From assembly GCA_037308085.1 (NCBI GenBank), contig CP147779.1, positions 486,184 to 550,183 of the forward strand: a DNA stretch of 64,000 nt. The letters run 5' to 3'. The notes beneath the pieces are model-generated. The model saw only the letters and a list, made by a program, of their open reading frames with translations, was not told where the DNA came from and made no database searches. Made by a program: the position numbers and the translations under genes. Below are positions 21,517 through 42,876 of the stretch, piece by piece. Origin of the DNA: Promethearchaeati archaeon SRVP18_Atabeyarchaeia-1. Its GTDB lineage: Archaea > Asgardarchaeota > Atabeyarchaeia > Atabeyarchaeales > Atabeyarchaeaceae. Position 1 is the stretch's first letter. Each line of letters begins with the position of its first letter.

Positions 21517-21621
21517 GGGCCCGTGGCCTAGTCAGGATAGGGCGCCAGCCTCCTAACTCATTTCTCCCCGCAAACCGGAGAGAGCTGGTGGTCGAGGGTT
21601 CAATTCCCTCCGGGCCCGCCA
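21517..21621 (+). tRNA. tRNA-Arg(CCU) with canonical 37/38 intron (27 nt) and encoded CCA
   Basis: Acceptor GGGCCCG/CGGGCCC. Anticodon arm CCAGC-CTCCTA|intron|A-GCTGG. BHB: central helix CTCC/GGAG with bulges TAA and AGA. T arm GAGGG-TTCAATT-CCCTC. Confidence 0.9.
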
Positions 21622-21663: not shown

Positions 21664-22188
21664 ATGTCTCCTTCTCACTCCGCCACCCCGAATATCTCAC
21701 ACCGCAAAGGATTCTACAAGATCCACATGGACAAACGCCAGAAAGAAATCTACGGCAGAAAACTAAAAGGAACAAACTACATGTTGCACTTGGGTCCAGA
21801 GCTGTTCAACAAAATGATGAGGAACCACACGAATAGCATGCAAAGGAAACGATGGGTCCCTTGTGAAAGAGAAGAGAGGATACGGAGAGCGAAAGAAGCT
21901 TGCACACTCGAGGAAGCTCGAAAAAGGACCAGATTACAGTACGAATGGAGGACGCTGACAAAGGAAGGGTTAGAAGAAGAGGTTCGGCAAATGCCGCTAA
22001 AGGAGATCGCAGGCAAATACAACGTGTCACAAACCCCCACCGTGGCGAGGAAATGCAGGAAACTCGGAATTCCGATACCAGAACGCGGTTACTGGACGAA
22101 GGTCTACTGGTCAAGAGTCAAATCGTTGGAAAGGAATAAGATAGAAAAAGGCGTCCAGCGAGAAAGTGAAACGAACTATCGTAATTGA
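21664..22188 (+). CDS. Hypothetical basic protein with HTH-like segment
   Basis: 174-aa Lys/Arg-rich ORF directly downstream of tRNA-Arg. Contains LKEIAGKYNVSQTPTVARKCRKLGIPIPERGYW. No family recognised. Confidence 0.35.
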   Translation: MSPSHSATPNISHRKGFYKIHMDKRQKEIYGRKLKGTNYMLHLGPELFNKMMRNHTNSMQRKRWVPCEREERIRRAKEACTLEEARKRTRLQYEWRTLTKEGLEEEVRQMPLKEIAGKYNVSQTPTVARKCRKLGIPIPERGYWTKVYWSRVKSLERNKIEKGVQRESETNYRN

Positions 22189-23930: not shown

Positions 23931-24194
23931 CCAAATGATAATCGTCGTTGCCTTTCTCTTAAGATATTGGCTTGCCCCCCGTGATTTCGCGTGGACACAT
24001 TTCAGATGCTTTGCTTGGACTACCACAACTTCTTCACAGATGATCTGTGGGCCACTCAGCCATCCACCACAAATTCACGACCGCCAATTAAGTGTAGACC
24101 GACGACCATCCCGAGAATCAAGAAGAATGTCCAATTCATTATTCGTCTAATCCATCTTCAAACGGATTCGGGAATGACCTAGTCCGAAGCCTTA

Positions 24195-24380
24195 GGGGTT
24201 TCGAGCTCGAGCCTAAAGCACTTAGAAAGTGCGGGGAACTCAGAGTTCATAAGGAAGATCGCTTTGTCAGTTGCAGAAGTGCTCAAGAACGAGAGGCCCA
24301 TAAACCGACAATTTCGGGGATACGGAAAAGACTAGAACCCCAAATATGCCGGTCTACAGACCTGCAGCCTTCTTATCTTC
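24195..24380 (+). repeat. Island repeat copy A (long form)
   Basis: 5' block TCGAGCTCGAGCCTAAAGCA. Middle AGAGTTCATAAGGAAGATCGCTTTGTCAGTTGCAGAA. Core GGAAAAGACTAGAACC (24324-24339). Then TCTACAGACCTGCA and a pyrimidine tail. Confidence 0.7.
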
Positions 24381-24959
24381 GGGGCCGGAAATCGCTTCTC
24401 TCAACAAGCCATTGTACCTCGATTCCAGTGGTCTTTGTAGAAGAATAGGATCATGTCGTTCCAGTAGTTGCCAATGGCTGCAACTTAAGGACGCGGGCTA
24501 CGAAAAGAAAAAAAAGGAGAGCAATCAAGCAGATAATCTGATCTATTATCCTTATCCTGCTAGTCGACTACCGTAGGTGTTCCTTGACTTAGCTCACTGC
24601 TTCGCCTGCTTTGTGCGCTGCGTGGCCCACTGCCTTGCCAGTCTTCTTCCCCGCTTTCTTCACTGCTTTGCCTGTCTTCTTCGTCGTCGACTTGGTCTTT
24701 CTAGATACCTTCTTAGCCTTCTTCCCAAATCCAAATGGGCTCGTTCTTGATCACCTAACATGAGTATATCTGCCCTCAAGCAGATAAGGCTATGGAGTCA
24801 GCTATCCACCGATGAAGCTTGTGGACCTGCAACTCAGGATATTATTTTATTGCCTATCCAGAATACCGTGCGCCTAAGTCAATCTCGTGTTGCCCTTCTC
24901 AGCTTCAGACAGATGAAAATCTCACATATATTGCCTGCGACCGTAGTTTCGTGAAGTTG

Positions 24960-25020
24960 AACTAGGGAAAAGACTAGAACCACAAGAATCTGTCCTTTTA
25001 GACCCACATACTTCTTTTTT
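24960..25020 (+). repeat. Island repeat copy B (short form)
   Basis: GGGAAAAGACTAGAACCACAAGAATCTGTCCTTTTAGACCCACATACTTCTTTTTT. Confidence 0.7.
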
Positions 25021-25423
25021 GGCGACTAATCCCCGGGCAGAGTCGGTGATACAGCCTTCTCTCAAAAATCGGACAGCATTCAAAGGCAGTTTTTTATAAG
25101 TGGTTCAAGTCTCACGGGCTGGTCGCAGGCATTCTTCCGTTTGTGATATCTGGCGCCAGATAATTCGTTGCGTGCGAACACGTTAAAATGTTCACGTGGC
25201 AAACCAGTGTCCTGATCGGACGAGTGGTGTAAGGTCGAAATGGGCGCAAAAAACGAGAAAGGAAGCGAAAACGTTGCCCCTCCCGCGCCTGCCATCAAGA
25301 AGGGGAGCGAAACGGTGAGAAAGAAGAAGCAAATAAAGCGGACTCTGGAAAAGATAAAGGAACCCTACCCTAGACACGAGAAAAAAATGAAGTATTCTAG
25401 TAATTGCTTCATTTACCGGGCGC

Positions 25424-25741
25424 CTATTTCTTCATTTCCTTTTGCTTCAGCTTCTTATCCCGGTTCGCGACGTATGCGTCTGCCGCCTTCTTATTAAGCT
25501 TACGAAGCTCCGTGGCTATAAGGTCAGACAGTTTTGCCGTAGTGACGTCTACCATGTTAGCTACTTTCTTGGCGATATCTTTGGCTACCTGTGCTGCCTG
25601 TTTGGCCGTCGCGCCGGCTTTCTCAACTGCAGCCACAATCTTGGATTCTGAGAATTCCTCTATTCTTCCATCTCTCTTCTTCACTTTCACCATGTCAACC
25701 ATATCCTTGCTTGACTGCTCTTGTAAGAGAAAGGGTTGCAT
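25424..25741 (-). CDS. Stand-alone ATP-cone domain protein
   Basis: VKVKKRDGRIEEFSESKIVAAVEKAGATAKQAAQVAKDI...V....L.DLI...L matches the ATP-cone pattern seen at NrdR and RNR N-termini. Confidence 0.55.
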   Translation of the reverse strand: MQPFLLQEQSSKDMVDMVKVKKRDGRIEEFSESKIVAAVEKAGATAKQAAQVAKDIAKKVANMVDVTTAKLSDLIATELRKLNKKAADAYVANRDKKLKQKEMKK

Positions 25742-25927
25742 TAAATACCTTGTGCCAACAGAGAACCTCTCACTAAAGAACTGAAGAGGTCGCCATTACT
25801 ACAGGCATGTCTGCCCCCGCATGGAACAGAATCGAACCCACTACGCCGTCGATCTTCCGCATGACCCTCCCCCAAAACGCTAGGCCAAGCAAGAAGAATA
25901 TCGGCAAGAGGACACTTCCAGCCAAGA

Positions 25928-26206
25928 ATGAATGAAGAGTTTGGGCGCCCGTACACTCTGCTTGGAGTCAAGTTTGGCCCAGGACTAATCATCGCCTCCT
26001 TACCATTCGCATTCGCACACGTTTTGAATCCTTTCAATCCATTTGCCGGTCGCTTCGATCTAGCCCCGTGGTGGGGTCTATTCACCTTCTTTGTCGGACT
26101 ATTCTTCGGACTCATCAGGGAAAAAACAGGTAGCATACTGGCATCAGGAATAGCGCACCGGCTCTCAGATGCAGTGGGACAAGGATCTATGCTCGCCTTC
26201 TCCTAG
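25928..26206 (+). pseudogene. Short CPBP (CAAX/Abi) intramembrane protease-like fragment
   Basis: 92 aa with EEFGR, FAFAH and GIAHRLSD motif remnants. Only about 2-3 helices, with no upstream continuation (a stop lies at 25862). Confidence 0.4.
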
Positions 26207-26360
26207 CAACACAAAGTTCCTTATTGCTCCATAGGGCCACATTCTTCAATTTGACCACCGGTACGTAGTCTTAGCGCTCATACTGGTGATCGCATGTATT
26301 TCAATGCTAAGGGATAACAGAGGTGCCCAAGACCGAGGTAGGTTGCAGCTGAGTTCCTGT

Positions 26361-27308
26361 TCAGGTCATGACGCCTATAGCGAAGAATGTGAAAATGAAG
26401 GCGTCTTGGACGAAGTGGATTGTCCATGCCCAGAAGAACCCCTTGGTCTCCAGCAGGCTCTTGCCTAGGAACCATCCCAGAAAGGTCGAAAGAATGACAC
26501 CTATTATGCTATTTGGTACACCATAGAAGTGACCGAGCCCAAAGTAAATGGCGGTGATTAAGAGTGCCTGGTGCTTGCCAAGGACTTTCCAGAGTTCCGA
26601 GAGGGGCGCAGCCCTTAATGTGAATTCCTCGTTAAATGCGTTAATCGCAGCGATCAGCACGGCAACCGGAATCAAAGGTAGTCCATTTACGAAGTCATTC
26701 AACGTAGGCCTTGTTGCCATAAACAGGTAAGCGAGCGTAACTACGCTAAAGACTACCGCAAAAATAGATCCTATCTTGACCCACGTATCTGTTTCCTTGC
26801 TGTTAATTAGCTTGGACGGCTCAACAGGCGCATTGATTTTGCCCTTGATGAGGAAGAAGTCTGGGCGTCGGCGTCCCAACAGCACCAGAAACACAATTAT
26901 GATCAATGCGGGCGTGAGTCTTAGAAGATGAATTCCGACTGACAAGGGCGTCTGATTCTGCAACACTGGGCCCAGGGAACTATCGCGAACGACAAGGAGC
27001 AAACCCCAATTCCAGCCACCTCCGTACCCGCACAAGAATATTATCAGTAGGATCACGAGAAATGGTCTAAGCGGCCGCAACGATGAGGAAGCAAAGGCAA
27101 GAGCAAGCAGTACTATCAGCCCGACAGTTGGCACCCACGGCCACCAATCCATAACCCCGGGCGCAACTGAGTTCCAGAAAACTACTGCAAGAGTACTCAC
27201 AAGCAATGTCGCTACCCAAGCGACAACAAGTGAGCCCCGATTTGGAGTTATATCTGCTTTCTCGACTTGCTTCTTCATCATATTCTCCACTATGAAGGGG
27301 TCCTCCAT
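26361..27308 (-). CDS. CPBP-family intramembrane metalloprotease (CAAX protease / Abi)
   Basis: Polytopic membrane protein carrying NEEFTLRAAP (EExxxR), AIYFGLGHFYG (FxxxH) and WTIHFVQD (HxxxD/N). Confidence 0.7.
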   Translation of the reverse strand: MEDPFIVENMMKKQVEKADITPNRGSLVVAWVATLLVSTLAVVFWNSVAPGVMDWWPWVPTVGLIVLLALAFASSSLRPLRPFLVILLIIFLCGYGGGWNWGLLLVVRDSSLGPVLQNQTPLSVGIHLLRLTPALIIIVFLVLLGRRRPDFFLIKGKINAPVEPSKLINSKETDTWVKIGSIFAVVFSVVTLAYLFMATRPTLNDFVNGLPLIPVAVLIAAINAFNEEFTLRAAPLSELWKVLGKHQALLITAIYFGLGHFYGVPNSIIGVILSTFLGWFLGKSLLETKGFFWAWTIHFVQDAFIFTFFAIGVMT

Positions 27309-27524
27309 GGATCTTGCTTGGGTGTCTTTATCTAGAGACTATTTAAAACTTGTCACAAGAATCAAGGCATCTAATGGCTTACTGGGTCTAGGCGTCCATC
27401 AGTCTCAATTGAGTCGGTTGTAGTGGCTTCTTCGGCGCGGGATCAAAAAGGGATCAGGTGTTTACCCGAAGTAACTAGCGAACTAATCATTCTTGGTGAG
27501 CTAGTCGCAGAACCAAGTCTGAGG

Positions 27525-27705
27525 GTCTTGAGATCGATCCTAAAGCAATGGTGCTGTGCGGGTACATAAGAGTTCGTGAGGACATTGGCTCTATCGGTAA
27601 GAGGGTGTTAGAGAAAGAGAGGTCTGGTAGGACACGAGTTCGGGGACACAGAAAAGACTAGAAGCACAAGAATCTATCCTTACAGACTTACATTCTTCTT
27701 TTTTT
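27525..27705 (+). repeat. Island repeat copy C (long form)
   Basis: GAGATCGATCCTAAAGCA...GTGCGGGTACATAAGAGTTCGTGAGGA...TTCGGGGACACAGAAAAGACTAGAAGCACAAGAATCTATCCTTACAGACTTACATTCTTCTTTTTTT. Confidence 0.7.
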
Positions 27706-27889
27706 GGTTTGATATCGTCTCCCTAGCAGATCGTGCAGTGAGCATGTGTGAAGAATGGAGTAGGAGCATAGTGTAACGGTAACTGCGGCGACCCACACTC
27801 AACAGCGTCCATTAATGCTAAATAGCGCCTTGTACTCAGTGCTTGCACTGCAACTATCCAGAAGAACGAAGGAGGAGAAGGGAAGAGGC

Positions 27890-28207
27890 ATGTGCGCTAA
27901 TCTGATAGTGATAGCTTGGGTACCGCAAAACAAGGCAAGCAAGATAGCTGAAGTGTTCGCTAAGAATCCAACTATCAAGGGAGTCAAGAGAGTGGGCAAA
28001 TGTCCCTATGCAACTCCAACCGATCGCGGCGTAAGGATCATAGACATATTCGAAGTTGAAGACACAAAAGTTGCCGAGGCGATCAGAGAGATAACCAAAT
28101 GGGAACAGCCATACGCGAATGCGGTTCCGGAGATGTCCTACTCGCTTGAGCCTCTATTGACGCCAGAAGAGGCTTTCGTGGCAATAGGGATGCAGCCTCC
28201 AAAGTAG
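27890..28207 (+). CDS. Hypothetical small protein (cassette ORF)
   Basis: 105-aa ORF (MCANLIVIAWVPQNKASKIAEVFAK...) with a GGAGG-rich leader. No family recognised. Confidence 0.4.
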   Translation: MCANLIVIAWVPQNKASKIAEVFAKNPTIKGVKRVGKCPYATPTDRGVRIIDIFEVEDTKVAEAIREITKWEQPYANAVPEMSYSLEPLLTPEEAFVAIGMQPPK

Positions 28208-28272
28208 ACTTCGATCCCTGTAAACAGAGAACCACCCAATGAAAGACTATCTAGAACCACCCTTCTTTTTCT
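28207..28272 (+). repeat. Island repeat copy D (condensed and degenerate)
   Basis: GACTTCGATCCCTGTAAACA...GAAAGACTATCTAGAACCACCCTTCTTTTTCT. Confidence 0.5.
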
Positions 28273-28299
28273 ACTCTCTATTCTCGTTAGCCCTTATTG

Positions 28300-28446
28300 C
28301 ACGGGCGTGTGAGACACATAGGATTTCGGAGTTCATGAAGAAGCTCGCTTTGCAGGTTGCGAACGCGTCGGAGAATGAGATGCCTAAACAGGAGAAAAGA
28401 CTAGAACCACGAATATGAGTGGTTAGAGACCTACAACCTTTTTTTT
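28300..28446 (+). repeat. Island repeat copy E
   Basis: GGAGTTCATGAAGAAGCTCGCTTTGCAGGTTGCGAA...ATGCCTAAACAGGAGAAAAGACTAGAACCACGAATATGAGTGGTTAGAGACCTACAACCTTTTTTTT. Confidence 0.75.
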
Positions 28447-28584
28447 GACGGGCGAAGAGACACTGGCGGGTTATATCATAATATAGGATAGAACACTATG
28501 TCACTTGACTCATCGTTTGAAGCCATTATTGTGATCTCCCAATATTCTTGGCAGTGCAGGCTGATGGAAAAGGGGATTGTCCGC

Positions 28585-28881
28585 ATGAAGGCGAAGCTTA
28601 AGGACATAATATCCATTGTCAAGGCGCTTGAAGGACAAATAAGGAAAGAGTACAAGGCAGAGGTCATTGGAATTTTCGGTTCCTATGCACGGGGGGAACA
28701 GCAGGCGAGTAGTGATGTGGACATGCTCGTGAAGTTTCTGGAAGGAGCAACTCTGTTTGACTTTGTTGGTCTTGGAGATTTTCTTGAGGATAAACTCAAC
28801 GTGAAGGTAGACGTTGTCTCGGAGAGAGCAATAAGGGTGGAGTTGCGGGACCAGATACTGAAAGAGGTCGTGACAGTTTGA
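28585..28881 (+). CDS. MNT-type nucleotidyltransferase (MntA-like antitoxin of an MNT/HEPN pair)
   Basis: GIFGSYARGEQQASSDVDMLV is the minimal nucleotidyltransferase GS...DxD motif. The stop overlaps the downstream HEPN gene start (TTGA). Confidence 0.8.
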   Translation: MKAKLKDIISIVKALEGQIRKEYKAEVIGIFGSYARGEQQASSDVDMLVKFLEGATLFDFVGLGDFLEDKLNVKVDVVSERAIRVELRDQILKEVVTV

Positions 28882-29216
28882 AGAGGGACATAAAGCTCTT
28901 TGTCAAAGACATAATCTCTGCTATGGACTCAATTGAGAAATTTGTCAGCGGTATGACTATTGACGAGATTCAAAAGGATGACAAGACCTCTAGTGCTGTG
29001 ATTAGGAAGTTTGAAATCATCGGAGAGGCGACAAAACATATTCCAGACGCGTTGAGAATTAAACACTCCGAGATTCCCTGGAGCAGAATGTCAGGAATGA
29101 GAGACAGACTGGTTCATGCTTATCTTGGGATAGACTATAGGCTTGTGTGGGATGCCATTAAGATCGATATACCGAATCTCAAGCCCAAATTCGAAAGGAT
29201 CTTGGTCGATCTTTAG
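28878..29216 (+). CDS. HEPN-domain (DUF86/HepT-like) toxin
   Basis: RDRLVHAYLGIDYRLVW contains the Rx4-6H HEPN motif. Length (112 aa) and pairing with an MNT gene are typical. Confidence 0.8.
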   Translation: MKRDIKLFVKDIISAMDSIEKFVSGMTIDEIQKDDKTSSAVIRKFEIIGEATKHIPDALRIKHSEIPWSRMSGMRDRLVHAYLGIDYRLVWDAIKIDIPNLKPKFERILVDL

Positions 29217-29254
29217 GATGGACAAGGGTTAGGATTAGACCCTTAGCACCAAGA

Positions 29255-29389
29255 ATTTGCTTCGAGCCCAAGCTTTCTGAAGAAGCCCACATTGTAGGTT
29301 GCAAACGCATTGAGGAATGAAATGCCTAAACAGGAGAAAAGACTAGAACCACAAACATGTGTGGTTAGAGACCTACACATCCTTTTTCT
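29255..29389 (+). repeat. Island repeat copy F
   Basis: TTCGAGCCCAAGC...TGAAGAAGCCCACATTGTAGGTTGCAAACGC...ATGCCTAAACAGGAGAAAAGACTAGAACCACAAACATGTGTGGTTAGAGACCTACACATCCTTTTTCT. Confidence 0.75.
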
Positions 29390-29597
29390 GCGACTACGAA
29401 TAATCTTCTATTTCGAAACCCGCCCTGTAATTGAGACGGGCGATCATATACAAGTATTCTGGCCAGGAAGTATTATATGCCAAGGCGCACGCCTACACAA
29501 CAGTTCCAGTCTATATAGGTTTACATAGGTGTAGGTCATACAAATTTAGGTATAACTGAAAGACTCTACGGTCTCAGGAGCCACAGGTACAAGGAGG

Positions 29598-30014
29598 TTG
29601 TCGAAAGCGCTAAGAACCTATTCACTCAGCCATAACCAGGGCGAAGCACTTAGCGGTTTAATGGCAGCCTACAACACCACCCTCAATCCCATACTGCAGT
29701 GCGTCTGGCAGACGACAGAGTGGAAGCGGCACCAGATCAAAGGCGAGAAGCAGTACAGGCTCTACCCCATCTTCAGAAAGGATAACGCGTTCAGGCGGGA
29801 GCTGAGGAATAGGCACCTAGCGAGATGGAGCTACGCTGCTCACTGGGTTGACTCCGCCATGAAGACAGCCTTCAGCATCATGGCATCGTGGAAAAGGAAT
29901 TACGACAAAGGTGAGAGAAGGAGAACATGTCCACGTGCGGGGAGGCTCTTTTTGCGGGTCAAGCAGACACTCCTCAAACTTGAGGGGGACACGCTCAGGA
30001 TCACCGTGAAGTGA
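29598..30014 (+). pseudogene. Possible N-terminal fragment of an IS200/IS605-type OrfB/TnpB-like protein
   Basis: 138-aa ORF (TTG start, AAGGAGG SD). Its flavour is TnpB N-terminal-like (RTYSLSHNQGE...AHWVDSAMKTAFSIMASWKRNYDKG.RR..P......LRVKQTLLKLEGDTLRI). It stops far short of the RuvC and Zn-finger parts. Confidence 0.35.
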
Positions 30015-30071
30015 AAAAGAAGCCCTAGCGCTTGTAACCTAGTAGAACGTGACAAGGGAGACAGTTGAGAA

Positions 30072-30743
30072 TTGGCGAAATCAAGTTCTAATATTGGATT
30101 GCTTAGAAAAGCGTCATTATGGATCTGCGTAGCTGGCATCTGGCAACTTCTTCCAGTCATCGGGTTCATGATCCTAGTGTTCGGAATGCTCTACACGATA
30201 TCAACTATGATACCGATCCCTATAGAGGCACTCCACTCGATCTCTAACTCGTACTTGCTAGCATCCGCTATACTGTGGATCACGATACCGATTACCATCA
30301 TTCTTGGCTACTACTCGTACAAAGTTGGCGTCCTTTATGGTTTCGGCTCACTCAAATTGACAGGGATCTGTAACATTATCATGACACTAGCCTACCCTGT
30401 TCTCTTCATTGGGTTGAGCCAATTCGTTCAAATGTTATCCTCGATCTTACCGTCGCCACCAGTTGACTATCCTCAGTTAATGCAAGGCTGGATAGGCTTA
30501 CTTCTGATCGGAGGAGTGTTCGTTTGCTTCTTTGGCCTCATTTCGCTCATAGCGTTCATATTTGGTTCTTCCGCTATGAAGAAGAATTCTGGCATTGGAA
30601 AGTTCGGGAAGGCAATGTGGTTATCAATCGTGGGGCTGCTAATATGGTTCCTGATCCCCATTGCAGTAGCCGAATTTGGGTCCGGACTTAGAAAGCTATC
30701 GAGACCTAATACAGCAAGACCAACTGGTGCGGCGAAACAGTAA
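30072..30743 (+). CDS. Hypothetical polytopic membrane protein
   Basis: 223 aa with about 6 predicted hydrophobic helices and a basic C-terminal tail. Confidence 0.5.
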   Translation: MAKSSSNIGLLRKASLWICVAGIWQLLPVIGFMILVFGMLYTISTMIPIPIEALHSISNSYLLASAILWITIPITIILGYYSYKVGVLYGFGSLKLTGICNIIMTLAYPVLFIGLSQFVQMLSSILPSPPVDYPQLMQGWIGLLLIGGVFVCFFGLISLIAFIFGSSAMKKNSGIGKFGKAMWLSIVGLLIWFLIPIAVAEFGSGLRKLSRPNTARPTGAAKQ

Positions 30744-30789
30744 ACTCCCAGATCCGCAACAAAACGACTGATTTGTCCTCCCAAGCTCA

Positions 30790-30936
30790 GAGTCGAGCCC
30801 TTGACGACTAGAATCTCTCTCTAGCCTAGGTTTTCAGAAACACCCGCTTTCTGGATTGAGATGCGCGGACAGGAGAAAAGACTAGAACCACAAACATGTG
30901 TAGTCCTCTGAAATCTAAGTAAAACCCTTTTTTTCT
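30790..30936 (+). repeat. Island repeat copy G
   Basis: AGTCGAGCCC...CGCTTTCTGGATTGAGATGCGCGGACAGGAGAAAAGACTAGAACCACAAACATGTGTAG...AAAACCCTTTTTTTCT. The 30-nt core is identical to copy F. Confidence 0.75.
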
Positions 30937-31150
30937 GGCTGCACACGCGTCTCGTCGTTTGGTAGCTAGCTGACAAAGTGAAGCTAGTTCCTACGGAGAA
31001 GATCAGGAGACTTGGCGCGCGTTGTGACCGAAGATCACCCGCTGCTAGGAAGTATCATATATCGTAGCGCACGCGATATCAATGGTTATATATTTGGCTC
31101 ATATGCAAGTACCGTAATCATCCCGGTTTTGAAGGAAGAGGAGATTCAGG

Positions 31151-31717
31151 ATGTCAAGAACTGAGTCCGAAAATGGTTCAGAAGCCTGGAAGAAATTCCT
31201 GGGAAAACACTGGAGCATAGTTGCCATGTTTGTAGTGGCAGGTCTTCTTGCATTTGTAGGCGCAGTTTGCGTCTTCTTATGGTTCGTTGGGAATGCTCAA
31301 TCGACAGGCATCGTACCTGCGGCTTTGGGTCTTTGGACAATGGGAAGCGTAGTGACTTTCATTTTGTATTTGGTCTTCTGGGAGCTTCTTCTTATTGGGA
31401 TCCCTGTGGCCTTAGTCGCAGTGGCTGGTTGGCAATGGTGGAAAAGGCTACCTGATAAGGAGAAGAGGGAATATCACCCCTTTGGCAAACGCTCACGTGC
31501 AAGACGCGGTGGAAGTGGAATACCCCTATTGTTCTTCGTTGCGTTCTGCATCAAGGTCTTTATCGATGGAAACTGGAACGTTGCCATTGCTACTTGGACC
31601 TTGAACTATGTTGTAAATTCGATTATCGCAATACTGATCTGGACGGCAATTATTTTCGGAATTCCTATCGCTATAGGGCTCGTCTGGTGGATACACCATC
31701 AAGTTAAGAAGCCCTAA
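31151..31717 (+). CDS. Hypothetical membrane protein
   Basis: 188 aa with about 4 hydrophobic helices and a basic loop (KRSRARRGG). Confidence 0.5.
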   Translation: MSRTESENGSEAWKKFLGKHWSIVAMFVVAGLLAFVGAVCVFLWFVGNAQSTGIVPAALGLWTMGSVVTFILYLVFWELLLIGIPVALVAVAGWQWWKRLPDKEKREYHPFGKRSRARRGGSGIPLLFFVAFCIKVFIDGNWNVAIATWTLNYVVNSIIAILIWTAIIFGIPIAIGLVWWIHHQVKKP

Positions 31718-31966
31718 CTTCTTTCTTGCTTGCATTGGTCAGATTTTCAGAATCGTTGAAATTCAGAAGGCGGAACTACTGATGAGTGAACGCACTATAC
31801 TGAGAAAGTTGGGAGCCGACACCCACATAAATGAGACATCGACATGCAGAGATCAAGGAAAATCCCGGATTCAGCAAGACAGAGTGGGCTCTGTAGCGTA
31901 TAAGAAATCTGAAACATGAGGGTTTCCTAGCGCTGGGATTCAATACACTAGAGTTGTGGTTGAGCT

Positions 31967-32899
31967 ATGAAAAGAATAAGGTTTGGGGTTCAAGCCTTGC
32001 AAGGCATGCCTGACTACGCTAGCCTCAAGAAGGTCGTGCTAGAGTGTGAGCGCCTCAAATTTGATTCAGTGTGGGTATATGATCATCTTCACTTTAGCTA
32101 TGGGCCTACACTTGAATGCTGGACGGTTCTAGGGGCGCTGGCAGAAGCGACCAAGAGCATAAGAATTGGCCCACTGGTGACGTGCAACGCATACCGCTAT
32201 CCCTCTATTCTGGCTAAGGTGGCGGCGACAGTGGATATGATCTCTAATGGGCGCCTGAACTTTGGAATAGGCGCAGGTTGGCTTAAGGAAGAAGCGATAG
32301 CATACGGCATACCATTTCCGAGAGGCCGCGAACGCGTTGAAATGCTGGACGAAGCACTGACAATAATAAGACAGCTATGGACCAAAGATAAAGCTGAATT
32401 CAAAGGCAAATACTACTCACTTAGTAGTGCAGTCTGCCTTCCCAAACCAACTCAGACACCTCATCCACCCATCCTTGTTGGCGGAGGCACAGGTACAAAA
32501 ATGCTCAGAGTCATCGCTAAGCACGCTGACGCTTGGGACATGGGATTCGAAACCTCAGAAGAGATCAAAGGGGACCTTGCCAAGTTAAAGGAGGCTTGCA
32601 GTGAGGTAGGTAGAGATCCGAATACAATTGAGAACACATACCAAAGCAGAGTTATAATAGCCGATGAGGATGAAGATGCATTTGCACGGGCGGAGAAGTG
32701 GCGAGAAGAGCGACATGGAAAAAAGGACGATCCGGACTGGAAAACCGCCATAGTTGGTTCCCCGAAGAAATGCATCGACCAGTTGAAATCCTTGGTAGAT
32801 GTTGGCATAACCAGTTTCAATCTGCTCTTTCCAGACGTTTTGAAGCTTGAACCTCTACGCCTCTTCTCCGGCGAAGTGATTCCCGATTTCCAAGAATAG
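31967..32899 (+). CDS. LLM-class (luciferase-like) F420/flavin-dependent oxidoreductase
   Basis: FDSVWVYDHL...IRIGPLVTCNAYRYPSILAKVAATVDMISNGRLNFGIGAGW...PKP.Q.PHPPILVGG.G. Confidence 0.8.
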   Translation: MKRIRFGVQALQGMPDYASLKKVVLECERLKFDSVWVYDHLHFSYGPTLECWTVLGALAEATKSIRIGPLVTCNAYRYPSILAKVAATVDMISNGRLNFGIGAGWLKEEAIAYGIPFPRGRERVEMLDEALTIIRQLWTKDKAEFKGKYYSLSSAVCLPKPTQTPHPPILVGGGTGTKMLRVIAKHADAWDMGFETSEEIKGDLAKLKEACSEVGRDPNTIENTYQSRVIIADEDEDAFARAEKWREERHGKKDDPDWKTAIVGSPKKCIDQLKSLVDVGITSFNLLFPDVLKLEPLRLFSGEVIPDFQE

Positions 32900-33189
32900 T
32901 CATTTGCTCTCTCTGCAGGCTATTTCTCGGATATGCTTACTAGGTTCTGGCTGGCGTACAGAGTAGATCAGTGCGCAATTCGGTTTCTGGTGGCTTTGGA
33001 TTGGGCTCCAATAGCAGCTACGCGACGCAAAGAAAACATCATCCAAGGAGCGCTGAACATTAGTCGTACATTCTTTATCGCTGCCGACCTCTAGACGCGA
33101 ATCGTCCAGGAATGAGACGCCCAAAGAGTAGAAAAGAATATAAGGAATTCACTTTATCCGTAAGCTAATGCGGGTGGAAAGACCTGCTT

Positions 33190-33406
33190 GGGCCCGTAGC
33201 TCAGTCAGGTAGAAGGAAGAAATGAGTACCTACCTATAGCGCCGGACTCTTAGAGGAACTGTTTCCCCTTAGAGGGTGAGGCTTTTAGACGCCAGCTGAT
33301 TGCCTAGAGATTAAGCCATCGAAGAGCAGCGTAAGGAAACCCGGTGGCCGGGGGTTCGATAGCGAGTTGTTTGATGGACAAGCCGAGATTCCCCTCGGGC
33401 CCGCCA
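33190..33406 (+). tRNA. tRNA-Lys(CUU) with three introns (D arm, canonical 37/38 of about 86 nt, T loop) and encoded CCA
   Basis: Acceptor GGGCCCG/CGGGCCC. The D stem GCTC/GAGC is split by about 25 nt (helix GGTAG/CTACC). Anticodon CCGGA-CTCTTA|about 86 nt|A-CCCGG. The T arm GGGGG-TTCGAT|about 29 nt|T-CCCCT. Confidence 0.75.
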
Positions 33407-33748: not shown

Positions 33749-36700
33749 TTGAGCAAGGAGTTTCTCGATCCATGGGTTGTCATGCAGGCTTTTATCGACG
33801 AAGGTATTCTTGCGAGCCAACACCTGGACTCGTATAACGACTTCGTTGAGAACAGGCTTCAGCAGATCGTTGATGAAGTCGGGAAGATAGAGCCAGATAT
33901 TGAGGGGTACTACATAAAGCTCGGCAAGATCGAGATTGGAATGCCGACGGTCAAGGAAGCTGACGGCTCCACGAAGGAAATACATCCCATGGAGGCGCGA
34001 ATACGAAACCTAACCTATTCGGCTCCGATCTACCTTGAGATGACTCTAGTCCATAAGGATGAGAGGACAGGTATTGAGGTTGAGGACAAGCCTTCCAAGG
34101 AGTACATCGGTAGGCTCCCGATAATGTTGAAGTCCGTGAAGTGCCCCCTGTCCAAGATGTATGCTGAGGAACTGATTAAGATCGGGGAAGACCCAAATGA
34201 CCCTGGAGGCTATTTCATCGTCAACGGCTCAGAAAGAGTTATTGTGATCCAGGAGGATCTAGCCTCAAACAGGATTCTAATTGAAGAGGGCTCTGCTGGA
34301 GCGTACTCCCATATCGCGAAGGTCTTCTCGACCTCCCGAGGATTCAGAGCCCCCGTTACTCTTGAGAGAAGGCGCGAAGGATCCCTTCGCCTTTCTTTCC
34401 CTTCCGTTCCAGGTAAAATCCCTCTGGCCATATTGATGCGGGCGTTGGGGTTGGTGACTGACAAGCAGATCAGTGAAGCCGTTTCGGACGATCCCGACGT
34501 TGTCCGTGAGCTCATTCCGACGCTTCACGAAGCCGATGTCGTTGTCGACCAAAGCGCAGCCTTGGACTACATTGGGCGCAGAGTCGCAGTAGGGCAGACC
34601 ATCGAGTATCGGCAGAAGCGAGCTGAACAGGTTCTTGACAAGTATCTTCTCCCTCACATAGGAACGAGCTCAAATGACCGGCTAAAGAAGACCTACTACC
34701 TAGGGCAGATGGCTGAGAGGTTAATTGAGCTTTCACTCCACAAACGTGAGGCCGACGACAAGGACCATTATGCCAACAAGAGGCTGAAACTGGCTGGGGA
34801 TCTCCTCGTCAGCCTATTCAGAGTCGCTTTCCTCAACTTGTGCAGAGACATTAAGTACCAAATTGAGAGAAATGCGATTCGCGGTCGTGTTCCAAGCATC
34901 CACACGGCTGTAAGGGCAGATGTCATAACTGAGAGGCTTCGGCACGCCCTCGCCACAGGAAACTGGGTCGGCGGGAAGGCCGGAGTGAGCCAACTCCTTG
35001 ACCGCAACAACTACCTTTCATCATTAAGTCACCTTAGAAGAATAATATCTCCCTTAAGTCGAAGCCAACCCCACTTCGAGGCAAGGGACCTCCACCCCAC
35101 ACACTGGGGCAGAGTGTGCCCCAGCGAAACCCCAGAGGGCCCGAACTGTGTGGCGCCGGAGACGCTGGTTACGCTTTCAGGAGGTGCCGTCTGCCGCATC
35201 GACAACCTGGAGAAGGATGAGGTTTGGCGTAGCACTAGTCTGATGTCTTCGACTTGGGATGTGACGGATCGGCCAAGTGTGAACGCTATCCACCCACTGG
35301 TGGCGCGGTTCATAAAGAATAGGACCAGTGAAGCGACATCGAGGTTGTATCGTATTACAACTGACACAGGACGTTCTATACTTGCGACACCAGAACATCC
35401 ATTCTATACTGATCAAGGTCGCATTGACGCAAAGCTTCTTGGGCCCGGGATGAGAGTTGCAGTCCTTCCAGCGGCAACCGAGCGTCCTGATTGGAGTGCA
35501 CAAGTCACAGACGGTGAGGCTCTCCTCGACGAAAAAGCAATATTGGCATCGTGCCCACCCTACTCGCATAAAGAGACCCATGTCAACTTCCTGAAGCAAT
35601 TAGGTCTGATACCGCTGCGGAGGACGAATCCGCACTACCGCATCTTGCTTCGCCTACTGGGATTCTTGTTCGGTGATGGTCACATGTCGATGAGGATCCG
35701 CGCTGGATCGTCTGGAAAGCCAAAATCTGACGTCTCCGTTCATTTCATAGGTAGACCTGAAGACCTCAATGATATCCGCAATGACCTTGCTATCATCGGA
35801 TTCAGGACTTCTGAGATAACAACATCAGAATGCACATCAGTGCTACCTGATCGGATTATACATGGCTTTACTCATCAAACCATTTGCTACCAGATGCCAT
35901 TTTGGATCCTCATGAGAGCCTTGGGCGCGCCAGCCGGTGACAAGGTGACACAAGCATTCTCCGTTCCCACGTGGATCCACAACTCATCAAATGCTGAGGT
36001 TCGTGAATTCTTGGCGGCCTTGTTTGGATGCGAGATGCTCAAACCTCTCGTAGACAAAAGGACAGGAAAGACTTTTGTCGCCCCGATGTTCAAGATGGCG
36101 AAGGAACTCTCGCTATTGGATTCATTGAATCGCTTCTTCGAAGACATTCGGCGACTATCTGAGAGATTCGGGATCAAGTTCCCTGAGAAAGCCGTCGTTC
36201 CGAAGGAGATTTTCACACGAAAAGATGGCATGATTACAAAGAAGTTGCAACTGAATTTCAGCGGCACTGATCAAAGTCTAGCTCTGCTATGGGGTAAGAT
36301 CGGCTACACTTATAGCAAGAGGAAAGAATGCCTTGCACAACGAGGATTCGGCTATATTCGAAGCAGATCTATTGATGCGGCTGCCCGGCGGAAGATAGCG
36401 GAGCATGTAATGAAAAGACAAGAGTATTTGCGAGGGACTCCCACCGAAAAAGCAAAGTCAATACTCAACGAACTGGAGCTAAAAGGAGCAAATGATGGGA
36501 TTCGGTTGCACGACATCGTCAACTGGCTCAAGAAGCGCGCTGACCCCACTAGAGTTCGCGCCTCTGCGCTTGACACCCCGACATTCGACCAATGGATCTC
36601 AAGAGCCTGCAGAGGACTGGACGGTAATGCAGGTCTGGTTTGGGAGAGAATAGAGGCGACACATGAAGAACAAGCCAGATCCGTCCCCGCAGTGGAAGAT

Positions 36701-38701
36701 GTGACGATGGCTGATGAAAACCATAATTTCTTTGCAAACGGATTCCTAACTGGGAACTGCGGCTTGGTCAAAAACCTTGCTTTAATGGCTTACATCTCTG
36801 TCGGTATTGATGATAGTCAGGTCGCGGCTAAGTTATTCGATCTTGGGGTCGCATCGATCGAGGCTACTAGGAAGGAGGGCGCGAAGAAAGGCGCTAAGAT
36901 CTTTCTTAATGGCCGTCTGGTCGGCTATCACAAGGATCCAGTCAGGTTCAGGACGCAGCTGGTTGCCCTCCGGCGCAGAGGCGAGATCAGCAACGAGGTG
37001 AATGCTGCATACTACGCTGATGCGGAAGAGGTTCAGATCAACTGTGACGCGGGCAGGGTTCGACGTCCCCTCTTCATTGTGGAGAATGGCCGGCCGAAGC
37101 TCACTCTTGAACACATAGAGAAACTGCGTAACCGCGAGTGGAGATTCGGCGATCTCGTGAGAAGTGCGATCATCGAGTATCTCGATGCCGAGGAGGAGGA
37201 GAATGCTTACGTCGCGATTGGACCGGAGTCGTTGACATCTGAGCATAACTACATGGAGCTTGCCGCTTCATCTGTCCTAGGTATTTGCGCCTCAGTTATC
37301 CCGTATCCTCAACATAATCAGTCACCTAGGAATACTTACGAGGCGGGAATGGCTAAGCAGGCGCTGGGGCTTTTCAGTGCAAACTACAGGCTTAGGGTTG
37401 ATACTCGCTCTCATGTACTCCACTACCTCCAGATGTCTTTGGTCAAGACGAAGGCTATGGACGCGATCAAGTACATAAAGCGCCCAGCTGGGCAGAACTT
37501 CGTCGTGGCTATACTATCCTTGTCCGGGTACAACATGGAAGATGCCCTGATAATGAATAAATCCTCTGTAGAGAGAGGGCTATCCCGTTCAACCTTCTTC
37601 CGTTGCTATGAAGCTGAGGAAAGAAAATACCCTGGCGGCCAGGAAGATAGGTTTGAGATTCCAGACAAAACCGTGAGAGGATATCGCGCAGCAGAGGTTT
37701 ACCGGCATCTGGGCGAAGATGGCATAATTGAGCCAGAGACCGATGTCACAGGTGGAGACGTCCTTATCGGAAGAACAAGTCCTCCCCGCTTCCTAGAGGA
37801 ATACACCGAGTTTGAGGTGCCAAGTCCTACTAGGAGAGAGACCTCCACTAATCTCAGGTATGGTGAAGCCGGCACTGTTGACACGGTCATCCTTGGTGAG
37901 ACGGTCGAAGGAAATCGCCTGGTTAAAGTGAAAGTCCGCGACTCAAGAGTGCCTGAGCTTGGAGACAAATTCGCTTCACGCCACGGTCAGAAAGGCATTC
38001 TAGGTCTGCTTGTCCCCCACGAAGACATGCCCTTCACCGAGGACGGAATCGTACCTGACCTTGTTATCAACCCTCACGCGATACCATCAAGAATGACCAT
38101 AGGCCAACTGATAGAATCAATCGCTGGGAAGGTTGGTTCACTGTCCGGGCGGTATGTTGATGGGACAGCGTTCTCAGGCGAGAAGGTTCCAGCCCTTTAC
38201 CAAGAGCTACACAAATTGGGCTTTAAGTACAATGGCAAAGAAGTAATGTATAATGGCATAACTGGCGAGAAGTACGACGTTGACATATTCATAGGTGTAG
38301 TGTACTATCAGAAACTCCATCATATGGTTGCTGACAAACTGCACGCCCGGGCGAGGGGCCCTGTTCAAATACTGACCAGGCAGCCGACAGAAGGGCGCGC
38401 CAGAGAAGGAGGCCTCAGGTTTGGGGAGATGGAGAGAGACTGCCTGATAGGACACGGGGCAACACTTCTCTTGAAGGAGCGGTTGCTTGAGGAATCTGAT
38501 AAGTGCGTCGTCCTGATATGCGAGAATTGCGGTATGCTTGCAGCGTACGATCGAAGCCGGGACAGATACTACTGCAGAGTATGCGGAGATAAGGGCAGGA
38601 TCTCGAGGGTTGAAATGTCCTACGCATTCAAGCTACTGCTTCAGGAACTTGTAAGTCTGGGCATAGCTCCGAGGTTGCTCCTCAAAGAGCGTGCATCATA
38701 G
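33749..38701 (+). CDS. rpoB: DNA-directed RNA polymerase subunit B (unsplit), intein-containing
   Basis: Full-length Rpo2 homology (1113 aa without the intein). TTG start after a GAGGAGG SD. C-terminal Zn ribbon CENCGM...CRVCG. Confidence 0.95.
35147..36757 (+). mobile_element. Intein (537 aa) with LAGLIDADG homing-endonuclease domain in rpoB
   Basis: The host sequence reads ...SETPEGPN|[10 protein letters not shown]...[12 protein letters not shown]|CGLVKNLAL... The intein starts with Cys1 and ends with Asn, followed by a +1 Cys. Block [19 protein letters not shown] motifs [11 protein letters not shown] and [11 protein letters not shown]. Confidence 0.85.
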
Positions 38702-41700: not shown

Positions 41701-42876
41701 GGTGGACCAATTATCGGTGGGATACAGGACTACATATCGGCTGCGTATTTGCTTACCAAGAGAGGGACCTATCTGACGCGGAAAGAGGTCAGCTCTCTCG
41801 CTCTGGCGGGAGGAATAAAGGAAGAACTCCCTGATCCTGAGACGAAGGACCCGGCTAGGTGGAGCGGCAAACAGATAATTAGCACGCTCCTTCCTAAGGA
41901 CATGAACTACACGTGGAAGGCTAAGATATGCCACAAGTGCGATGAATGCAAGAAGGAAGATTGTGATTATGACGCGTACTGCGTCGTCAAGGATGGGAAG
42001 TTGGTGTCCGGCGTATTCGACAAGAACGCGTTCGGTGCAGGGGTTCCTGAAAGTATCTTTCACTCAATAGTGAAAAACTATGGTAGCGACGCAGCCAGGG
42101 TTTTTCTCGACTCCATCACGAGGCTCCTTCTTTCTTTCATAACACTCAAGGGCTTCACAATGGGCATAGACGATGTCGAACTTAAAGAGGAAGCTGTGAA
42201 CAGGATTAGAGAGATCTTGGACGAGGGGCAACGCAAAGTCGATCAGCTGATCGGGATCTACAAGAGAAGCGAGATGGAAACCCTCCCAGGTCGCACTCTT
42301 GAAGAAACCCTCGAGATGAGAATAATGCAGGAACTCTCAGAAGCGAGAGACGGAGCAGGCGACATAGCCGACCAGTACCTTGGTATGAAAAATCACGCCG
42401 TAATCATGGCCAGAAGTGGAGCCAGAGGAGATAGGCTCAACCTAGCCCAGATGGCAGCCTGCGTCGGGCAACAATCAGTTCGAGGAGCGCGCATAATGAG
42501 GGGGTACCAGGACCGAAGCCTTTCGCACTTCAAATCAGGCGATCTCGGCTCCGAAGCTAGGGGGTTTGTCTCAAACTCCTATCGCTCCGGACTTACACCT
42601 ATTGAGTTCTTTTTCCATGCGATGGGAGGAAGGGAAGGACTCGTCGATACGGCAGTTCGCACTTCAACGAGTGGCTACATGCAGCGTCGTCTGATCAACG
42701 CTCTACAGGACATCAAGGTGGAGTACGACGGCACAGTTAGAACTTCGGTGGGCCGGATAGTCCAGTTTCAGTATGGCGAGGATGGAGTTGACCCGTCCAA
42801 GAGTTATCATGGACACGCGGTGGACATAGACGCGATACTGAAAAGAAATCTTGGCGAGAAATTCAAGAAGCGGTGA
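38722..42876 (+). CDS. rpoA1: DNA-directed RNA polymerase subunit A' (Rpo1N), intein-containing
   Basis: Rpo1 N-terminal homology (885 aa without the intein), including the zinc motifs and NADFDGDEMN. TTG start after a GGAGGTG SD. Confidence 0.95.
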   Translation: MSSRVPKIIEKIRFGFLSPDEIRKLSVTRIITADTYDEDGLPIDSGLMDSRLGTVEPGRRCKTCGNRVGDCPGHFGHIELARPVIHVGFNKLIYKALRVTCRKCSRVLLKDEELEKFKKEMESWEKTWNTLSEDITDEVVKRAIRVAECPHCQEAQRKIGFEKPTSYTEETEAGPVRLTPSDIRDRLERIPDEDEKLLGINPKHARLEWTVLTVLPVPPITVRPSITLESGVRSEDDLTHKLVDVARINQRLKENIDAGAPQLIVEDLWELLQYHVITYFDNEVSGIPPARHRSGRALRTLAQRLKGKEGRFRSNLSGKRVDFSARTVISPDPNISINEVGVPYDVAKILTIPERITNWNIEEEKRLVRNGPDKHPGANYVIRLDGRRVDLRFVKDLDSIADTIEPGFIVERHLKEGDTVLFNRQPSLHRMSIMAHEVRVMPFKTFRLNLCVCLSGDTELYTDLGRVPIAGLARDNLDCAPLSCDWQKNKEAYFSGIASLHVVDPKRLGLKSYQITTENGRVIRATAEHPFYTMRGIVKAGELKCEDSVVVYPIEIPLAGGCPDILTQEQIINALPDHTYTRYTVTQLNAMGLTDVSADSGKQIRLASLVGHLFGDGTLLIGEEGGRVVFRAADMKDIRSLWETAQSLNLSPTAIEESKPGEFNITRADGKILKPRGKTYIFEVRRKPVAVAFKALGVPEGDKVAQEYRVPKWLNDAPKMARRAFLRAYFGCELSTPRLHTSSGSKFNQPVFKITKVEGLSVELFLQDIQALLDDFGVHLSSITSEDGNLRKEGRKSITYVCNFADNDDNLLALFKRIGYEFDHKKEELARLASEYITAKNRAKAKASAHLETALALRKQGLTYEAIAKAIGHYSWATVASWLWNDRTAAGLPANFPDFYTWRKSAAKGLKQGFAWDRITNIEEIELQRAYDITTTDSNHNFVAAEFLTKNCPPYNADFDGDEMNLHVPQSEEARAEAKILMRVQEQILSPRYGGPIIGGIQDYISAAYLLTKRGTYLTRKEVSSLALAGGIKEELPDPETKDPARWSGKQIISTLLPKDMNYTWKAKICHKCDECKKEDCDYDAYCVVKDGKLVSGVFDKNAFGAGVPESIFHSIVKNYGSDAARVFLDSITRLLLSFITLKGFTMGIDDVELKEEAVNRIREILDEGQRKVDQLIGIYKRSEMETLPGRTLEETLEMRIMQELSEARDGAGDIADQYLGMKNHAVIMARSGARGDRLNLAQMAACVGQQSVRGARIMRGYQDRSLSHFKSGDLGSEARGFVSNSYRSGLTPIEFFFHAMGGREGLVDTAVRTSTSGYMQRRLINALQDIKVEYDGTVRTSVGRIVQFQYGEDGVDPSKSYHGHAVDIDAILKRNLGEKFKKR
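40078..41574 (+). mobile_element. Intein (499 aa) with LAGLIDADG homing-endonuclease domain in rpoA1, four residues upstream of the NADFDGD catalytic loop
   Basis: ...FRLNLCV|CLSGDTELYT...HNFVAAEFLTKN|CPPYNADFDGDEMN... Block B ATAEHPFYT. LAGLIDADG motifs LVGHLFGDGTL and RAFLRAYFGCE. Confidence 0.85.

Follow-up and report, generated by a model that had tools for sequence, protein, structure and literature searches.

The genome of Atabeyarchaeia-1 (Atabeyarchaeum deiterrae), an Asgard archaeon from wetland soil, is complete at 2,808,651 nt, manually curated and long-read-validated (PMC11291895). We analyzed a 64-kb stretch of this genome (hereafter the window), in which an island of small genes occupies the interval from a 3-hydroxyacyl-CoA dehydrogenase gene to a tRNA-Lys gene followed by the rpoH-rpoB-rpoA operon. 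The island is punctuated by an array of intergenic repeats, which form the subject of this analysis and which had been proposed in an initial annotation to be either recombination sites of a cassette array, small RNA or terminator modules, or scars of serial integrations. Because the source genome was curated by hand and validated with long reads, the array is unlikely to be an assembly artefact.

A 17-nt core (GAAAAGACTAGAASCAC) occurs six times in the window, each time on the plus strand (24325, 24967, 27651, 28394, 29336 and 30875), against a mean of 0.47 in dinucleotide-preserving shuffles, none of 100 of which reached six. An nhmmer scan of the window with a profile built from 21 family members recovered seven copies at E<=1e-3, all on the plus strand and all within 24205-33146, and gave no other match. 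These are six strong copies (A, B, C, E, F and G), which bear out the same-orientation repeats of the initial annotation, and a newly found copy, H. The repeat is 55-190 nt long and is composed, in order, of modules 1 and 2 (~100 nt), module 3 (GAATGAGATGCCYAAASAGGA), block 1, a spacer, block 2, a few bases and a run of five to eight T. The two blocks, GGAGAAAAGACTAGAA (block 1, 13 nt) and TTAGAGACCTACA (block 2, 12 nt), are invariant and separated by a spacer of ~16 nt; its length is constant, not variable between 8 and 14 nt as first described, and an indel is found in copy G alone. The left part of the repeat (modules 1-3) is optional and variably truncated. Our alignments confirmed the upstream blocks reported for the long forms, in which ~100 nt of conserved modules are common to unrelated genes, and an oligo-T run (T5-T8) terminates every full copy. 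We also considered that the short forms arose by sharp 5' truncation at GAAAAGA, which was ruled out by the persistence of degenerate module-3 remnants (e.g., TAAACAGG).

The leftmost copy of the array, copy A (24195-24384; nhmmer 24205-24383, E 4e-32, and alignments), is a long form with modules 1-3, the core, block 2 and a weak T-run, while copy B (24958-25024; E 8.5e-17) is a short form with a degenerate module 3, the core, block 2 and T6. Both lie in a 1.5-kb stretch (23931-25423) in which no gene is called (Logan contigs) and which may be a decayed cassette; a 116-codon stop-free frame devoid of a start codon runs through copy A. Copy C (27525-27707; nhmmer 27532-27707, E 5.9e-28) is a long form which, according to the open reading frames (ORFs) and Pfam matches around it, is placed after a minus-strand CPBP gene and hence not in the position of a 3' untranslated region (3'UTR). 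Copy E (28295-28451; E 2e-39) holds modules 2-3, the core, block 2 and T8, and copy F (29226-29393; nhmmer 29236-29393, E 7.9e-41) is a long form with 85% identity to copy E over 113 nt. Copy G (30792-30939; E 1e-24) is a hybrid site by alignment, matching the family through ...ACATGTGTAG and continuing into an unrelated right half (TCCTCTGAAATC...) that ends in T7. The identical core shared by copies F and G is real, and extends over 33 nt rather than the 30 nt noted initially. Copy H (33060-33146; E 3.4e-14) consists of the left half only (module 3 and GAGTAGAAAAGA); it stops at GAAAAGA (33137), 52 nt before the tRNA-Lys gene, and is followed by the TATA-like ATATAAGG and the tRNA-Lys leader. 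A further plus-strand copy of the initial annotation, copy D (28207-28272), is doubtful, since the profile finds nothing there even at E<=50 and only CTAGAACCAC and CCTTCTTTTTCT can be read from the sequence; at best, it is possibly an internally deleted remnant located directly after the upstream ORF, in which CTAGAACCAC is fused straight to CCTTCTTTTT.

Between copies B and C, the island encodes an ATP-cone protein (25424-25741, minus strand), a CPBP fragment (25928-26206, plus strand) and a CPBP/Rce1-like protease (26361-27308, minus strand), all assigned with Pfam. Copy C is separated from D/E by a hypothetical 130-aa ORF (27815-28207, plus strand; 105 aa from the ATG at 27890). Copies E and F form the left boundary and the 3' end, respectively, of a plus-strand MNT/HEPN toxin-antitoxin (TA) cassette (28452-29225) comprising a TATA-like leader, the MNT gene (28585-28881; 98 aa, with the start taken from P0122) and the HepT gene (28878-29216), with Pfam matches to NTP_transf_2 and HepT-like. 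Downstream of copy F, a promoter-like motif on the plus strand, D8 (GCCAGGAAGTATTATATGCCAAGGCGCACGC; 29462-29492), marks the left edge of a segment that is missing from a near-strain, L117 (see below). This segment (29494-31043, plus strand) contains copy G, a gene for a 223-aa membrane protein and a 138-aa ORF (29598-30014); this ORF had been described as a TnpB fragment, for which neither Pfam, NCBIfam nor PDB gave support. A second copy of D8 (31044-31074, plus strand; 24/31 nt identical) lies upstream of the last block (31151-32899, plus strand), which encodes a 188-aa membrane protein and an F420-dependent LLM oxidoreductase. This block had been thought to lack a repeat, but half-copy H follows it. 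TATA-like motifs (GGTTATATCATAATATAG, GGAAGTATTATATGCC) are located 20-110 nt past the T-run of copies E, F and G and of a copy from another genome (L126up), which suggests that individual cassettes have TATA-like promoters of their own.

The right border of the array is formed by the tRNA-Lys(CTT) gene (33190-33406, plus strand). Its identification in the initial annotation proved correct: ARAGORN calls tRNA-Lys(CTT) once three introns are removed by hand, and the unspliced gene, in which two of the three introns are non-canonical in position, is missed by both ARAGORN and Rfam. This is consistent with the multi-intron tRNAs reported for this lineage, in which most tRNA genes have introns, often several and at non-canonical positions (PMC11291895).

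Members of the repeat family were identified in five other archaeal contig sets, namely L018 (one copy), L113 (two copies), L117 (two copies), L126/L127 (two copies) and L121 (nine copies). L018 and L113 came from exact 17-mer scans of genome and metagenome collections, which otherwise returned mostly single chance matches and no other real locus, and the remaining sets were reached by walking out from proteins of the window; two scans of viral contigs gave no true copy. The L018 copy, from a metagenome-assembled genome (MAG) labelled Promethearchaeati (the Asgard kingdom), is a long form with an ICMT-type methyltransferase gene on one side and an alpha/beta-hydrolase gene on the other, and the two copies of L113 flank a gene for a DUF4382 secreted protein. 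The 27-kb contig L121 holds its nine copies within 17 kb, on one strand throughout, and L117 belongs to a near-strain of the source organism, with an LLM protein 99% identical and DNA 96.3% identical over 2.1 kb. We found no published description of this repeat family, and the words "cassette" and "direct repeat" are nowhere used in the text of a mobile-element survey that reports 14 integrated elements of 1.3-40 kb, each of unique sequence, in this genome (PMC11529989).

In each of the five multi-copy loci (7, 9, 2, 2 and 2 copies) all repeats share one orientation, which has a probability of 7.6e-6 under random orientation. The genes do not follow this rule. In L121, a C_GCAxxG protein, a HepT/MNT pair, a TnpB C-terminal fragment and a HicB-like antitoxin are encoded on the opposite strand between copies; with genes pointing both ways and repeats pointing one way, polarity is a property of the array and not of the individual gene. 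Overall, ~15 of 20 copies come after a co-oriented gene and five after an opposite-strand gene (window copy C, L121f, L121g, L121h and L117a). Core-region identity is 0.71 within genomes versus 0.72 between genomes, and many copies have their nearest relatives in other genomes, indicating no concerted evolution. Such homogenisation would not be expected if the units move between genomes. The spacing of repeats in the window and L121 arrays is 0.6-6.8 kb. A cluster of attC sites lacking an integrase (CALIN) is defined by at least two same-orientation sites with cassette-sized spacing, each after a cassette, and the arrays of the window (seven copies in 9 kb) and L121 (nine copies in 17 kb) show this arrangement.

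The initial annotation had proposed comparing strains and MAGs at the repeats, and this comparison revealed that whole gene blocks differ there between the window, the near-strain L117 and related genomes. The MNT/HEPN pair is flanked by repeats in three genomes (window E to F, L121 b to c, and L126 up to dn), with different neighbors in each: upstream, the hypothetical ORF in the window, an SBF transporter gene in L121 and an unknown gene in L126; downstream, the unconfirmed "TnpB" ORF in the window, a 109-aa ORF in L121 and a hydrolase cassette in L126. The leader past the T-run (GACGGGCGAAGAGAC...GGTTATATCATAATATAG) is common to the MNT/HEPN pairs of the window, L121b and L126up, and is also present in L183, a locus with no repeat. 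Similarly, an alpha/beta-hydrolase cassette, which has a conserved leader of its own, is found behind a repeat in three contexts, past LLM in L117, past ICMT in L018 and past MNT/HEPN in L126. Within 4 kb, L117 departs from the window in three respects. Two minus-strand genes take the place of MNT/HEPN upstream of the F-like copy, and the position of half-site H is occupied by a complete repeat followed by the alpha/beta-hydrolase cassette. L117 also lacks the 1.55 kb of window 29494-31043, its positions 749-921 corresponding to window 29324-29493 (95%) and 890-2990 to 31044-33144 (96%). The ends of this missing segment lie in the 31-nt direct repeat D8, marking a second type of breakpoint that has no relation to the main repeat. 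At the far end of the hydrolase cassette (L117 3978-4040; L018 4617-4680), a T-run is followed by ACCAATCTCAAA / ACCAGCCTCAAA; these echo GCTAATCTCAAA after the left-end T-run, so that a short direct repeat flanks this cassette.

The cargo of the arrays includes TA pairs, a GNAT acetyltransferase, a TIR-domain protein, a CAAX-type protease and methyltransferase, and membrane or secreted proteins, similar to what is reported for bacterial and archaeal integron cassettes (PMC9668308). Both enzymes of CAAX-type processing are represented, as the Rce1-like CPBP protease in the window, where a 92-aa fragment of a second such protease is also present, and as the ICMT-family methyltransferase in L018 (2907-3452). 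Two other archaeal loci with close MNT homologues, L120 and L124, are dense TA islands (several MNT/HEPN, PIN, MazE and DUF2283/DUF4258 pairs) from which the repeat is absent, and thus the same cargo exists outside the repeat system.

Core-anchored pairwise alignments, together with a comparison to L183, placed the junctions between shared and unrelated DNA in a ~60-nt stretch in or at the edge of the repeat. Junction J1 falls at ...CAGGAGAAAAGA and is seen in the pairs of window F with L117a, which are equal from GGAGAAAAGA rightward and unrelated leftward, and of window H with L117b, which are equal up to GAAAAGA and unrelated rightward. Junction J2 falls inside block 2: window E and L126up, which share the downstream cassette, are near-identical from AGACCTACAACC on; window F and L126dn, which share the upstream cassette, diverge past ...CTTAC; and window G is family-like up to TGTGTAG and unrelated beyond. 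Junction J3 corresponds to the first base past the T-run, where the homology of L183 to the window MNT/HEPN leader begins.

The repeat has no coding capacity. Its translations look protein-like (KRLEPQ..DL; EF.KKLAL.VA; the 116-codon open frame over copy A), and a protein-coding remnant was therefore considered; however, frames shift between copies through indels that are not multiples of three (e.g., 2 nt in the L018 copy relative to copy E), in agreement with the conservation at the nucleotide level described initially. In addition, no intact protein paralogue of the translations is present in the window, and a composite query of all conceptual peptides matched no protein at E<=10 among 5.8 billion sequences. 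The repeats are not a structured RNA either. Rfam gave no match at gathering score nor at E<=1 over 20-36 kb, the seven copies have minimum free energy (MFE) z-scores close to 0 on either strand (-0.95 to +1.56 on the plus strand), with the minus strand of copy A as the sole outlier (z = -3.1), and RNAalifold predicted zero base pairs in the alignment of 22 core regions as well as in that of 10 long forms. The single-strand folding check suggested in the initial annotation thus found no conserved fold in the aligned copies. An attC-like or RNA hairpin (ACCACA/TGTGGT) was rejected as a family feature, being confined to E/F-type copies, disrupted with no compensatory change in L121a, c, d, e and g, and set in a different register in L121f and h.

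Two further signatures of site-specific recombination were evaluated. An 11-6-11 pseudo-dyad (CTAGAACCACA|AACATG|TGTGGTTAGAG), symmetric at 9/11 positions, is present in copies E, F and L018. The family consensus is partly symmetric (CT..AA..ACA N6 TGT..TT..AG) and single copies are symmetric at 5-9/11 positions, but across the family the dyad CTAGAACCACA|N6|TGTGGTTAGAG has 66.9% paired cells versus 66.0 +/- 1.5% in shuffles, that is, pairing at the level of shuffles, and no covariation. As for the R''/R' boxes of attC (RYYYAAC / GTTRRRY), the best candidates are CTAGAAC (4/7 positions) and GTTAGAG (6/7 positions), which are 14 nt apart and internal to the element instead of terminal; GTTAGAG becomes CTTACAG, TTTATAG or TCTACAG in roughly one copy out of two. 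In keeping with the earlier statement that no canonical R''/R' palindrome is conserved, the boxes are partly matched, in some copies only, and there is no consensus fold. The repeats are neither canonical attC sites nor structured RNA.

We also searched for a gene that could act on the repeats. Window ORFs of at least 250 aa are housekeeping genes (among them AdoHcy hydrolase, NMD3, RIO kinase, PCNA, GINS, SRP54, Pus10, RNA polymerase subunits, ribosomal proteins and two Snf7 paralogues), a cassette gene or, in the case of 7315-8055 only, an ORF with no family match. Phage_integrase had no match among these ORFs, nor in L018, L113, L117 or L121. The absence of an integrase from the window, noted initially, is upheld by the fact that every ORF of at least 250 aa was scanned or annotated as housekeeping, and a tyrosine recombinase, which the initial annotation had suggested looking for near other copies, was not found in the related loci. 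Among the scanned island genes there is also no integrase remnant, a search that did not include the gene-free stretch 23931-25423. In a more distant genome (L115 558-7500; LLM 74% identical), a 457-aa tyrosine recombinase gene is followed by about nine small genes and then by LLM; neither this nor any other repeat family was found in L115, and the arrangement is probably an ordinary integrated element.

Two candidate partners of the repeat were rejected. The possibility that it is the right end or guide-RNA scaffold of a TnpB transposon was dismissed, as it shows no similarity to the surroundings of the intact TnpB gene of L018. A LAGLIDADG plus helix-turn-helix (HTH) protein was considered as the associated enzyme and set aside, since homologues occur in the window (a truncated 174-aa ORF) and L113 only, with none in L018, L117, L121 or L126. 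In L113, a 419-aa protein carries LAGLIDADG_3 and HTH_17 domains, and the L113 genes (1840-2760 and 6757-8016) are 0.5-2.5 kb from repeat copies. The 174-aa ORF of the window (21664-22188) matches, at 45% identity, the C-terminal half of a LAGLIDADG-type L113 protein of 306 aa, and lies beside a tRNA-Arg(CCT) gene with one intron (~21517-21621).

The interpretation best supported by these results is that this Asgard archaeon carries an integron-like cassette array whose boundary element is not attC. The initial proposal of cassette-array recombination sites was thus right on behavior and wrong on family: its logic is upheld by strict polarity and by block-level differences at the repeats, and membership of the attC/integron family is rejected because the tests of fold, boxes and a single crossover position fail and no integrase lies nearby, either in the 64-kb window or in the related loci. 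On balance, and by a narrow margin of confidence, we favor the view that the repeats are end-modules of mobile gene cassettes in a chromosomal CALIN-like array, and not attC sites. A unit would consist of an AT-rich TATA-like leader, one to three accessory genes and a repeat, and exchange between direct repeats, acting as the recombination substrate, would insert, delete and reorder whole units. The agent of this exchange may be a recombinase encoded elsewhere in the genome and acting in trans, or homology-guided exchange with incoming DNA. To judge from its sequence, the oligo-T run probably terminates rightward transcription, which would insulate each unit as well as the essential downstream operon. 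It is also conceivable, although we advance this only tentatively, that Atabeyarchaeia possess a new system of cassette capture and shuffling, in which an unstructured polar site of ~55-90 bp (two invariant blocks, fixed spacing and oligo-T) would be recognized in double-stranded form by a recombinase whose gene lies elsewhere in the genome, in functional parallel to integrons and mechanistically independent of IntI/attC.

Several observations weigh against mobile cassettes ending in these repeats. Neither the 64-kb window nor the related loci yielded a tyrosine or serine recombinase or an HUH nuclease. Breakpoints fall into three classes and not at one nucleotide, which is more readily explained by homology-guided exchange in the invariant blocks, or by a mixture of events, than by one site-specific crossover. 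At its 3' end, the hydrolase cassette has a T-run plus AATCTCAAA but no repeat, and homologues of MNT/HEPN and LLM (79-86% identity) occur without repeats in L120, L122-L125, L182 and L183, indicating that cassettes are separable from repeats. About six loci in all underlie the comparisons, and the comparison loci are short-read metagenome contigs, in which assemblers break at these repeats and mis-joins there could in principle have occurred.

The main rival is a portable terminator or 3'UTR module that travels with accessory genes, recombination being a passive by-product of similarity, which we regard as unlikely though worth serious attention. Oligo-T is the archaeal termination signal, T5-T8 closes every full copy, and with ~15 of 20 copies in 3'UTR position relative to a co-oriented gene, a terminator role by itself would explain much of the pattern, which counts against the cassette-end reading; one terminator per unit would also be sensible given the cassettes' own TATA-like leaders, and neither a fold nor a recombinase was detected. 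Simple 3'UTRs of upstream genes are contradicted by the five copies of about 20 behind opposite-strand genes and by copy B in its gene-free stretch, and polarity tracks the array and not the gene. Moreover, a T-run alone would suffice for termination, leaving the 13-nt and 12-nt blocks at fixed spacing and the ~100 nt of modules over, and half-site H and hybrid site G would be unaccounted for. The terminator part of the corresponding initial proposal is therefore plausible on account of the oligo-T run, while its structured-RNA part is not supported, with z-scores of about 0, no predicted pairs and no Rfam match. A family of small non-coding RNA genes of ~180 nt, each with its own oligo-T terminator, would agree with conservation at the nucleotide level despite broken frames, with the lack of protein matches to the translated query and with the T-run at copy ends. 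The same folding and Rfam results argue against it, and the 5' part, and hence any shared promoter, is missing from many copies, making this the least probable of the explanations considered and a very improbable one.

Serial insertion of integrase-bearing elements upstream of tRNA-Lys, each duplicating an attachment (att) site and later decaying to remnants, is in our view improbable. It would account for an array of direct repeats abutting tRNA-Lys and for H, which as a left half-site fused to unrelated DNA resembles attR or attB and is occupied in L117, and integrating and excising elements of 1.3-40 kb are known in the host lineage (PMC11529989). However, the units are gene blocks of 0.6-3 kb without integrases, and the initial suggestion of integration scars is partly compatible with the data, agreeing in the tRNA adjacency and the half-site appearance of H but not in the nature of the units. 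The same small units also occur in other genomes and orders, the annotated genes of L121 include no called tRNA, and repeat subtypes are common to several genomes, whereas each published integrated element of this genome has a sequence of its own, unlike a multicopy repeat (PMC11529989). We assign a slightly lower probability still to a non-autonomous mobile element, resembling a miniature inverted-repeat transposable element (MITE) or mobilized as single-stranded DNA by a HUH transposase, whose strand-biased intergenic insertion would lead to a shared orientation per replichore. Such insertion has a precedent in IS200/IS605-type elements, TnpB genes or fragments are found in L018 and L121, and the repeat is a multicopy, intergenic, lineage-restricted sequence whose length varies while its 3' end is common to the copies. 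Nevertheless, it has no conserved terminal inverted repeats or subterminal hairpins and is unlike the flanks of the intact L018 TnpB, its copies are clustered in arrays with none elsewhere in the 64-kb window, and a pair of filled and empty sites was not found among the loci compared.

Archaeal integrons are commonest in the phylum of the host, and the array resembles CALINs and these Asgard-enriched integrons in having tandem small blocks that each end in a same-orientation repeat, most genes co-oriented and a minority reversed, no adjacent integrase, blocks reshuffled between genomes, and a cargo rich in TA pairs, acetyltransferases and secreted or membrane proteins (Ghaly et al. 2022, PMC9668308). 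Unlike attC, the repeat lacks a conserved single-strand hairpin, L boxes and extrahelical bases, and what is conserved in it are two blocks at fixed spacing and oligo-T, plus a variably truncated upstream part of ~100 nt. In addition, integron cassettes are mostly promoterless and dependent on the integron promoter Pc, whereas the cassettes here seem to have promoters of their own, and the breakpoints are not at one G|TT position. The Vibrio cholerae repeats (VCRs) of sedentary chromosomal integrons exceed 100 nt, are conserved in sequence and separate the units of a chromosomal array rich in TA cassettes, as the long conserved repeats do here; VCRs are, however, folding, imperfect palindromes of considerable length that show homogeneity inside each genome, in contrast to this family, which has no fold and an identity within genomes no higher than that between genomes.

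Similarities to other repeat-bounded elements are also partial. Xer-dependent modules, such as integrative mobile elements exploiting Xer (IMEX) and those bounded by pdif sites in Acinetobacter plasmids, are likewise small, often TA-encoding and bounded by short recombination sites, and are moved by a host recombinase encoded elsewhere, and the 11-6-11 pseudo-dyad of copies E, F and L018 recalls Xer sites; this dyad is not kept across the family, and pdif sites alternate in orientation whereas the repeats here are all direct. Repetitive extragenic palindromic (REP) sequences and bacterial interspersed mosaic elements (BIMEs) are multicopy and extragenic, often lie just downstream of genes, as the present repeats do, and may act on transcript ends and serve as recombination substrates. 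REPs are nevertheless short hairpins dispersed genome-wide, unlike the unstructured, array-clustered and strictly polar repeats described here. Finally, tandem att-flanked elements at tRNA genes share with the array direct repeats, tRNA adjacency and a half-site at the border, and differ from it in that the units here lack integrases, the repeat is not part of the tRNA gene, and the units are found elsewhere in other orders.

If the repeats are true recombination sites, they would provide attC-independent capture and reordering of accessory genes in archaea close to the eukaryotic ancestor, within the core chromosome and beside the RNA polymerase operon. Such gene flow would be overlooked by integron finders, which depend on the attC fold. 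The defined site of ~55 nt could be used as bait for a recombinase, and published complete genomes, long reads and metatranscriptomes are available for the host. Even under the more conservative reading, portable terminators acting as patches of homology would help explain the turnover of hypervariable islands in this lineage.

Our analysis yielded additional observations on the genes to the right of the array. The rpoB (33749-38701, 1650 aa) and rpoA' (38722-42876, 1384 aa) genes are oversized, and each has Intein_splicing matches in the precomputed annotation of the corresponding Logan contig. Two tandem Snf7 (ESCRT-III) paralogues are encoded on the minus strand (45621-46931), downstream of the S7 gene that trails the RNA polymerase operon. 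Cumulative GC skew climbs to ~58 kb and then drops near the PCNA and GINS genes; this turn could be an effect of gene orientation or a replication landmark, which would be relevant if a Xer/dif-type mechanism is considered.

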